DNA of 64,000 nucleotides from Candidatus Thermosaccharophagus tengchongensis. GTDB lineage: Bacteria > Armatimonadota > Fervidibacteria > Fervidibacterales > Thermosaccharophagaceae. A program made the position numbers. The stretch lies in assembly GCA_032161105.1 (NCBI GenBank), contig JAVHTD010000005.1; one strand, given 5' to 3'. Numbering within the stretch: position 1 is the first letter of the stretch; every line of letters begins with the position of its first letter. Shown here one piece after another: positions 15,001-17,594 of this stretch.

Positions 15001-17594
15001 CAATCGGGTCTTGTGAGCAACACGGAATGCACCTGCCATACGGCACCGACTCGTTTGAAGCGGAGTTGATAGCGAAGCGAGTTTGCGAACGGGCGGTTGA
15101 GCTCGGCGCAAAAGTTGTATTGCTGCCAACTATACCGTATGGCGTTAACAGCAACATGCTCGCCTTCCCATTGACGATCCACATTCAACCATCAACCTTG
15201 AACGCCTTTGTAAGGGATATCATATGCTCCCTTGAAAGGCACGGCATAAGGAAAATCGTTCTCTTCAATGGTCACGGCGGGAACGAGTTTAAACCTTTGC
15301 TAAGGGAGATTTATGGGCACACAAGCGCTTTCGTGTGCGTGGTTGAGTGGTGGAAGGTGGCTGGCGACATCTACCCCGAACTGTTTGAGGAGCCCGGGGA
15401 ACATTCGGGCGCTGTGGAGACAAGCGTTTCCTTGGCGCTGTTTCCTCACCTCATTCACATGGAGTGGGCTGATGAGGGTAAAGTTCGCCAAAGCAGGTTT
15501 GAGGCGATCAACGAAAGGTGGGTTGACATTGTGCGCCCATGGGAGCGCTTGACATTTACCGGTGGACAGGGCAACCCGAAGGAGGCAACCGCGGAGAAGG
15601 GGGAGAGGATCATAAACATCGTCGTTGAGAGGATAGCCAAGTTTTTGGCGGAGCTATCGGAATCGCCGATTGATGAGCTGTTCCCATACATGTGAAGTTG
15701 AATCAACCACCCTTCGCAACAAGCACAACACCGATGCATATGAGCGCGACACCGGCAAGCCGGATCGCCGGCGGTGTCTGATTAAACAGCACCCATGAGA
15801 TCAGCACTATGATGACTTGGTTGAGGGCGACAAAGGGATATGCGTATCCGATGCCGCGCTTTGAAACAACGACAACATACAGCACCGCTGAAATAGCATA
15901 GGTGAGGAGACCGCTTATAACCTCCGGGGACAAAACGAGGTGCACCAGTTGCGGGAAAGCGCTTAAGGAGTGGACTTCGCCAACTCGCGAGGCTCCAAGT
16001 TGTATGAGCATCTGCCCGATGCCGCCCAACATGACGGCGATCAGGATCAATGCGAGTGGACTACTCGTCAGAATGCCAATCAGTGAGCCCATTCAAAACA
16101 CCTCGCTTTGGAAGCCCCCATGTGGGATGCTGTTCAATCTCGCCGCTGAGCGATGCAGTTCGGCAGCCTCGTTGAACCAGCACTTGACATGCACATTATA
16201 ACGCTTCCGCTTCCCGAACTGAGTGGACATGCCAACTTGCCCGCTACTTCGGTGTGAAGAGTTTGCATCATACGCGCACCAGATAAACCTACAAAACTAC
16301 TCGCGCGCTATCATGGATAGTGAAGGCAGCAGCGCACCACTTCATCTCCGCATGAAATGCAAATTGTGAGGTGGAAAGAGAATGGGAAGGACGGCGCGCT
16401 TTAGCATCTCAATGGACGAGGATTTGCTCAAGGCGTTTGATAGCCTAATACTGCGCAGGGGTTACACAAATCGCTCCGAAGCCGTTCGTGACCTTGTGCG
16501 AAACAGGCTTGTGATGGATGAGTGGGAGCATGCCAAGGGGGATGTTGTGGCTGCGGTTGCCGTCGTTTACGATCACCACAATCGCCTCGCCTTGAACAGG
16601 TTGACAGATATGCAGCACAGATTTCAGAAGCTCATCATATGCACAACGCATGTGCACCTTGATGAGCGCAATTGCCTTGAAGTGGTCATACTCCGTGGGA
16701 AGTCGCGCGCCGTCCGTGAGGCAGCTGACAAGTTGATCAGCCTGCGCGGGGTTAAGCATGGCTCAATAATGGCTACGACGACGGGAAAGGAATTGGTTTA
16801 GATTTGAGGTGCGATGTGGTGTGCCAGAGATGGACGAGCAAACGGCTGAAGGATTCACATTGATAGAGCTCCTTGTGGTGCTCACCGTCATCGGGATATT
16901 GGCGGCACTGCTTTTCCCGGTTTTCGCGCGCGCCCGCGAGAAGGCGAGGCAGGCAGTTTGCACAAACAATCTACGACAGCTATATACAGCTCTTGCGATG
17001 TATGCCGATGACTATGACGGTTACTTTCCTCAAGGGCACAAGTTTGATCCAAACCGCACACCCCAGTTTTACTGGTTTTGGTTCATGGACATTCAACCAT
17101 ACCTACGCATGAGGGATGTGCTTCTTTGCCCGAGCGATCCAGACCCGCTTGAGTTTCAAGGCTACAGGTTTAACTACGCTCTCAATTACCAAGTGCCGGA
17201 AAACTTTGATCCGAACAATATCGTTGAAGCGCTTAACCCACCGGGACCACCGCTGCACGAGATTGAGAATCCGTCAAACACCATTGCGATGTGCGACGCG
17301 AACAATGTATGCATACATCATATCATCTGCCACACAGACCAGAGGGAGCTCGGATACAACGACGCCATTTGTTCCCAATACTACTGGCTTGGACCGATAA
17401 GGTTGGAGAGGCGGCACAACGGCGGCGCTAATTTCCTTTTCTTTGATGGGCATGTGAAATGGCTCACAAGGACGCGCTATGGTCAATGGACATACACGGC
17501 TGATGACGATTGATTGCCTTTGCCGCTCTGTGATGATGTGGGCATTTCGGGCAGCGCGCTTGAACGCTCACCGCAACTGTTGGATGCTAATTCA

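Follow-up and report, generated by a model that had tools for sequence, protein, structure and literature searches.

Can a pilin-like protein be dedicated to the capture of a single nutrient? This question is raised by a locus of Candidatus Thermosaccharophagus tengchongensis (phylum Armatimonadota), in which the single nikR gene of the genome is followed, 19 bp downstream, by g00602, encoding a pseudopilin with the H-X9-DG motif. The initial annotation of this locus proposed that g00602 captures nickel; the arrangement itself was borne out by domain matches and coordinates, and what follows is a comparative case built from sequence, genomic context and predicted structure. The features of the locus are given below, numbered along the window (the whole stretch of 64,000 nucleotides that was analysed).

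15703..16092, minus strand: gene for an EamA/SMR-like small membrane protein, divergent; syntenic in the genus
16252..16279, no strand assigned: imperfect 28-bp inverted repeat (7-14-7), conserved, 2.9-8.6 bits on the genus matrix; weak candidate NikR site
16309..16314, plus strand: TATCAT, conserved, putative nikR promoter -10 element, recognized by inspection
16382..16801, plus strand: nikR, nickel-responsive ribbon-helix-helix regulator; NF003381, 185.6 bits (cut-off 105); PF08753 and PF01402
16802..16820, plus strand: nikR–g00602 spacer, 19 bp; ribosome-binding-like GAGGTG at 16806-16811, no NikR box and no terminator-like site
16821..17513, plus strand: g00602, DUF1559/H-X9-DG prepilin-type protein of 230 aa with a predicted type IV pilin fold; found in the genus and one close relative only
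16851..16922, plus strand: class III signal of g00602, with G/F cleavage site, E5 and hydrophobic helix
17292..17372, plus strand: His/Cys-rich segment of g00602 (C158, C164, H166, C170, H171, C184), mostly of low model confidence
17415..17453, plus strand: H-X9-DG-H motif of g00602 (H199, D209, H211), invariant in the paralogue alignment
17592..18950, minus strand: enolase gene, convergent, bounding the nikR–g00602 unit; synteny kept in the genus

The nikR product carries a ribbon-helix-helix domain and a NikR_C domain, both above cut-off, and its NikR_C match is the only one in the whole genome. Residues H79, H90, H92 and C98 align by spacing with H76, H87, H89 and C95, the high-affinity nickel ligands of E. 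coli NikR (positions from the available part of PMC7055735); judged by spacing, the His-His-His-Cys set of square-planar nickel ligands is thus present. The g00602 start is a GTG at 16821, 9 nt after GAGGTG, the nikR stop codon ending at 16801; alternative starts are possible at 16809 or 16830. The protein exceeds the cut-offs of TIGR02532 (27.7 bits, cut-off 16.3), TIGR04294 (34.1, cut-off 19) and PF07596 (59.3, cut-off 23.3), so that class III signal, PF07596 domain and C-terminal H-X9-DG motif are all present, and it falls below the equivalog cut-offs of the type II secretion system (T2SS) core pseudopilins GspG (43 against 88.85) and GspH (31.5 against 80); gsp-like genes are found elsewhere, on contig C3. 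Its leader peptide (16821-16853) is acidic, compared with basic leaders in most paralogues. From the gap of only 19 bp we infer that g00602 is co-transcribed with nikR. Among four RNA runs, one gave a 221-nt contig, which covers nikR only, and the three raw-read runs were without reads. A promoter consensus scan found no sigma-70 pair at nikR, and its single terminator-like match lies inside a gene. Further along the window, a Tad-like ATPase gene and two TadB/TadC-like genes were recognized by inspection at 20956-24411.

The genome encodes 34 full-length paralogues of this family (32 with an exact H-X9-DG motif and two variants) in addition to three T2SS-type pseudopilins and one cut copy; the number had initially been given as 33. 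When the variable heads of the 34 paralogues were ranked by identity to the 24 complete pilins retrieved from genus genome G001, the g00602 head was first at 93%, followed by four paralogues at 86-89%. Within the genus, this head is 92-93% identical, compared with 78-80% for NikR and 82% for enolase, and g00602 differs from its G001 orthologue by 85 synonymous and 16 amino-acid differences; the gene is under strong purifying selection. The proposal that g00602 is the best conserved paralogue therefore holds within the genus but not beyond it. The head was found in 4 of 401 phylum genomes, all four belonging to the genus (E<=1e-12), in 2 clusters among 31 candidates from a set of 5.8 billion proteins, and in 4 of 79 loci of a metagenome scan, where all four orthologues follow nikR and identity then falls to about 30%. 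Taking these counts together, g00602 is a paralogue of high conservation that is confined to one lineage.

The pairing of nikR with this pilin is, as first reported, kept in all four genus genomes, the mature protein being 90-91% identical. However, none of the four genomes departs from the gene order creatininase, EamA, nikR, pilin, enolase, and since the four flanking genes tested keep this order the pairing represents one ancestral event; it was dropped as independent evidence, as the neighbours are equally syntenic. Another pilin was also confirmed to follow nikR in 5 of the 15 usable Fervidibacteraceae loci (16 were fetched, one of which was cut at a contig end). These pilins are 29-33% identical to g00602, as judged from the two of the five that were aligned.

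NikR is present in 209 of the 401 phylum genomes. Out of 150 nikR loci with listed coordinates, 80 were taken, about one per genus; the next gene often encodes NikM/CbiM, a TonB receptor, ExbB or NicO (families based on a scan of 19 of these genes), and a pilin in six loci. A pattern modelled on the E. coli operator gave few sites and was replaced by a learned matrix. The motif learned from the 80 loci, GTRNYAC-N13-GTRNYAC, which occurs there at 40 sites, agrees with the published NikR signal GTGTTAC-N13/14-GTAACAC (PMC545781, available part). The seed of this motif was picked by eye, and pilin loci were among those inspected for it. A second matrix was built on 29 sites, excluding the six nikR-pilin loci. 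In all five Fervidibacteraceae nikR-pilin loci, none of which was used in training, a box of 28.9-30.1 bits lies between nikR and the pilin gene.

By comparison, the canonical 27-bp box is absent both upstream of nikR and between nikR and g00602 in all four genus genomes (best score 3.1 bits); in this genome the best score between 16091 and 16860 is -3.4 bits. In each of the four nikR promoters the best site with a 14-nt spacer is the 28-bp inverted repeat, scoring 2.9, 8.6, 6.4 and 4.6 bits on a genus matrix trained on 13 sites, each scored with a 13-nt spacer. The lowest of these values is that of this genome, in which scores of at least 3 bits occur at about 1300 positions and scores of at least 8 bits at 163, and the repeat is at best a weak candidate NikR site. 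Genome-wide, 27 sites score at least 11 bits, most of them inside genes, and the boxes of this genome are modest (14-18 bits). Intergenic boxes were also found before nikMNO (C17:17279) and before an ECF-FmdE-CbiQ operon (C23:21216). The latter operon (C23:19575-21197) comprises an ECF S-like gene, FmdE and CbiQ, and boxes of 13-25 bits are found with it in the three other genus genomes; its CbiQ is a possible complement to the nikMNO operon of C17. The top NikR-like box of the genome (C25:30405, 21 bits) is situated between divergent units, some 400 nt before a 16S rRNA gene.

The six pilins that follow nikR in the 80-locus survey belong to a single clade, designated type A here, and the member of this clade in the present genome is C23:26100-26801, not g00602. 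Type A was found in 64 of the 401 genomes, nearly always as a single copy and 50-69% identical in most genomes beyond the closest relative. NikR is present in 62 of these 64 genomes, against 209 of 401 overall, and at least 18 of the 64 have, by coordinates, type A immediately after nikR. On the 29-site matrix, 63 of the 76 type A loci with enough upstream DNA (from the best 80 of 89 GTDB loci) have a box that reaches 12 bits within 350 nt upstream, and 70 have one within 3 kb, versus none of 67 control pilin loci; these counts overstate independence, as the genomes are related. The controls are what remained of 79 fetched pilin loci after 12 with short upstream DNA had been dropped; four are g00602 orthologues, and the other 63 come from genomes of whatever NikR status, so that controls from within a genome are cleaner. 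In the present genome a box was found at 1 of 38 prepilin genes, C23:28049-28939 (14.6 bits), all others scoring 5.0 bits or less, and among 26 pilins of G001 the best box (10.9 bits) is on type A, with two others reaching 8 bits. A boxed type A copy is present in all four genus genomes; in this genome it is part of the following operon.

C23:26100-28939: NikR-boxed operon comprising pilin D, a DUF4198-TrmO_N fusion and the type A pilin; boxes at C23:28957 (16.5 bits) and C23:29110 (15.3 bits)

The DUF4198 protein, in this operon fused to TrmO, is presumably a NikK-type nickel component. Among the best 80 of 89 GTDB loci, which largely represent the same genomes as the phylum set, the neighbours of type A are an ABC ATPase (48 loci), an ECF S-like protein (45), FmdE (36), nikR (26, of which 21 directly upstream), EcfT/CbiQ (19), a ZnuA-type binding protein (11), DUF4198 (4) and NikM (3). 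These families were confirmed on examples, and 'pilC' tags, being short motif matches, were ignored. Type A is usually the first gene ahead of the importer and heads ECF/ABC metal-transporter operons. Type A, a NikR box and a ZnuABC-type transporter were also observed together in records titled Ca. Omnitrophota (L325, L328 and L330), for which reason type A may extend beyond the phylum. The C23 type A copy, rather than g00602, is put forward on sequence and context as the best candidate for a nickel pseudopilin in this genome.

Types B, C and D, the last in the C23 operon, represent further unrelated pilin clades behind NikR boxes, and a single NikR-boxed operon can contain pilins that are unrelated to each other (types A and B, or A and D). 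Type B has a head rich in His and acidic residues and is often found in tandem with type A (L015:1283-1990, L117, L123-L126); it is not among the paralogues of this genome. Orthology of g00602 to the boxed clades A, B and C was not borne out by head identity, tree or profile. Its head is 26-30% identical to types A and B, the level seen for unrelated paralogues, and it ranks ninth of 34 on the type A profile with a background score (78.5 bits, compared with 321.6). In a quick tree, A, B, C and g00602 formed four separate clades without resolution of the deep nodes. As a separate observation, several pilin genes (L339, L340, L342, L349, L354, L357, L363 and L364) have near-identical upstream leaders and N-termini, which were seen as repeated spurious ORFs; this similarity suggests that a promoter-plus-leader cassette was recently duplicated with new heads.

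Could g00602 nevertheless be a nickel pseudopilin itself, as a second, genus-specific binder that is expressed with nikR either constitutively or through the 28-bp repeat acting as a non-canonical NikR site? Its position speaks for this: it lies on the same strand as nikR across a gap of 19 bp, three other lineages have a boxed pilin in the same slot (the unrelated clades A, B and C follow nikR there), and a pilin is expected after a given gene by chance in only about 1.4% of cases (34 of about 2500). A head more conserved than NikR or enolase, the bias toward synonymous differences, a conserved Cys/His cluster, and the recurrence of the same repeat as the best 14-spacer site of all four promoters point in the same direction, as do an open tree node (support 86) that g00602 shares with type A and three others, and a gain of nickel hydrogenases by the genus (PMC11535203, available part; we infer the lineage assignment). 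Against it, the pairing reflects one evolutionary event in a gene restricted to the genus, all four genomes lack the canonical box and already carry a boxed type A copy, the score of the repeat in this genome is commonplace on a matrix trained with 13-nt spacers, and the His and Cys content of g00602 (7 and 5) lies inside the range of its paralogues (2-9 and 1-12). We regard a nickel role for g00602 as a real possibility that the evidence as a whole does not favour. The gene is probably not repressed by NikR. Its ligand is most likely a different one, and synteny has most likely preserved an old gene order that happens to put it next to nikR.

Predicted structures suggest a pilin-type fold for both proteins. 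The type A model has a pLDDT of 88, and the g00602 model one of 74.6, with residues 163-193 (the His/Cys segment) under 50. The top structural matches of both models were all pilins or pseudopilins, with Z 5.8 (rmsd 2.9, 93 aligned) and Z 6.4 (rmsd 2.3, 88 aligned), both below 8, the level at which such a match would suffice by itself. A Foldseek search with the type A model gave no match at E<=0.001, and matches in the ESM Atlas were solely to unnamed or DUF1559 clusters. The H-X9-DG-H motif is not nickel-specific, since it is invariant across paralogues. Type A has near-invariant residues of its own, E107 (75/75), C111 (75/75) and H159 (74/75), and in g00602 residues C158, C164, H166, C170, H171 and C184 are kept in all five orthologue sequences compared, as a possible metal site or as possible disulfides.

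The predicted fold also allows for NikR-controlled pilins that bind no nickel themselves and act either as adaptors choosing secreted cargo, such as a nickel-scavenging protein, or in remodelling of the filament or envelope under nickel shortage. T2SS-like machinery is at hand (four secretins and the gsp-like cluster on C3), most of the invariant His and Asp residues belong to the family-wide motif, and a pilin of Legionella helps iron uptake without piliation (PMC13170364, available part). The near-invariant residues specific to type A argue against such functions, as does its usual place ahead of the importer, which at other nikR loci is taken by TonB receptors, NikM or NicO. The neighbours of type A also showed no conserved gene for a secreted cargo; we consider this explanation unlikely. 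About equally improbable, in our judgement, is that the ligand is cobalt or an organic nickel complex rather than free nickel, with clades A, B, C and D taking different complexes. The sharing of one NikR-boxed operon by unrelated pilins would fit this, as would the fact that these pilins are most often partnered not by NikM but by a generic ECF S component together with FmdE, and CbiM-family profiles do not distinguish nickel from cobalt. Yet cobalamin has a riboswitch-linked paralogue of its own, and control by NikR argues that what the cell gains from these pilins is nickel.

That paralogue follows the sole cobalamin riboswitch of the genome and is accompanied by btuF. The region (C9:47123-52012) comprises the riboswitch, the H-X9-DG pilin, a btuF-like gene and cobU/T/S-like genes, and adjoins a CODH/ACS cluster. 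An Rfam search of 31 pilin leaders and the nikR locus found this cobalamin riboswitch only, with no NiCo or TPP element.

A demand for nickel is indicated by two [NiFe] hydrogenases, hyp genes, the CODH/ACS cluster and LarC, recognized by motif and inspection; no NicO-type permease was found in this genome. Neither was a TonB receptor above cut-off, and the Plug domain is found in none of the 24 genomes of the order. TonB receptors and ExbB follow a boxed nikR in L031, L077 and L038. Of the NikR genomes, 62 have type A and 147 lack it; a Plug domain is present in 17 of the former and 86 of the latter (17 of 51 and 86 of 139 outside the order), related genomes not being independent in these counts. 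TonB receptors are thus depleted, not excluded, where type A occurs; strict exclusion was ruled out by the Plug domain in 17 of the 64 type A genomes. In several families a boxed nikR is followed by another secreted protein of 213-246 aa with C-[YF]-[SC]-G-L after its signal (L034, L056, L057, L058, L092, L093, L094 and L102), for which Pfam gave a weak YjbH match in one case only; it is a candidate nickel porin or binder.

Taking into consideration both NikR boxes and transporter context of other paralogues, the general idea that certain H-X9-DG pseudopilins serve nickel uptake specifically is strongly supported, but its application to g00602 is weak, as this gene lacks the canonical box. NikR-controlled pseudopilins are a well-supported and apparently undescribed part of nickel regulons, given their regulation and genomic context, with nickel binding as a prediction. 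We lean, with some reservation, toward a model in which pilin heads are nutrient-specific, types A-C being repressed by Ni-NikR and serving nickel, and g00602 probably serving another ligand. DUF1559/H-X9-DG proteins would then be pilin-fold envelope proteins, each with a variable head tuned to one nutrient and a gene under the regulator of that nutrient. Type A (C23:26100-26801) and the Fervidibacteraceae types B and C would be repressed by Ni-NikR and co-expressed with inner-membrane ECF/ABC metal importers, which types A-D would feed with nickel. Under nickel shortage the prepilin peptidase would process the pilin, which would enter a T2SS/T4P-type filament or remain anchored in the membrane; its head would capture Ni(II) or a nickel chelate, in the periplasm or beyond, and DUF4198 or a solute-binding protein would relay the metal to the importer supplying hydrogenases and CODH/ACS. 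A bolder extension, which we hold to be doubtful, is that in Armatimonadota without TonB receptors a dynamic pseudopilus with nickel-specific DUF1559 heads (A-D, possibly g00602) captures nickel at or through the secretin and hands it to ECF/ABC importers, the 34 paralogues being a swappable receptor set of one import machine, each under the regulator of its nutrient.

The experimental focus thereby moves from g00602 to the C23 copy. A single-copy clade with NikR boxes across many families allows for a cheap test involving one small soluble head, one metal and one repressor. If type A binds nickel, pilin-fold proteins would represent a third kind of envelope nickel receptor beside TonB receptors and solute-binding proteins, and the nickel supply to hydrogenases and CODH/ACS in diderms without TonB receptors would become testable.

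Searches of the openly licensed PMC and bioRxiv literature gave no paper that ties DUF1559/H-X9-DG proteins to NikR or nickel (those on NikR and pilins being judged by title and the opening of the abstract), consistent with the initial search, and no ligand is assigned to these proteins in the openly licensed literature; the words 'pilin', 'TonB' and 'nickel' are all absent from the available main text of PMC11535203. Genomes of Planctomycetes and Armatimonadota encode between some tens and roughly a hundred of these proteins each. As described in the available part of PMC8567305, the Planctomycetes DUF1559/SBP_bac_10 (PF07596), H-X9-DG (TIGR04294) proteins likewise combine an N-methyl motif with DUF1559 and have many scattered paralogues; that part covers abundance and fractionation, neither ligand nor regulator, whereas here one clade is tied to NikR. 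With the NikR regulons of delta-proteobacteria (nikMNQO/nikKL; PMC545781) and E. coli (nikABCDE; PMC7055735), as far as the available parts of these sources describe them, the present system shares a regulator with intact nickel ligands, the 27-bp signal, the placement of boxes ahead of nikMNO and of ECF operons, and a nikR gene that often heads an uptake operon. It differs in that a prepilin-type protein is a regulon member, often as the first gene, and g00602 differs further by the absence of a canonical box. The NikR-controlled TonB-dependent receptors FecA3 and FrpB4 (fecA3, frpB4) of H. pylori (PMC7055735, same part) have counterparts in the same slot after a boxed nikR in this phylum, but the protein considered here has a predicted pilin fold and not a beta-barrel. 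Legionella PilA2, which has been linked to iron acquisition (PMC13170364, available part), is also a type IV pilin tied to a metal; it is a major pilin that acts without piliation or processing, whereas the proteins described here are dedicated, large-headed paralogues encoded in metal-regulated transporter operons.
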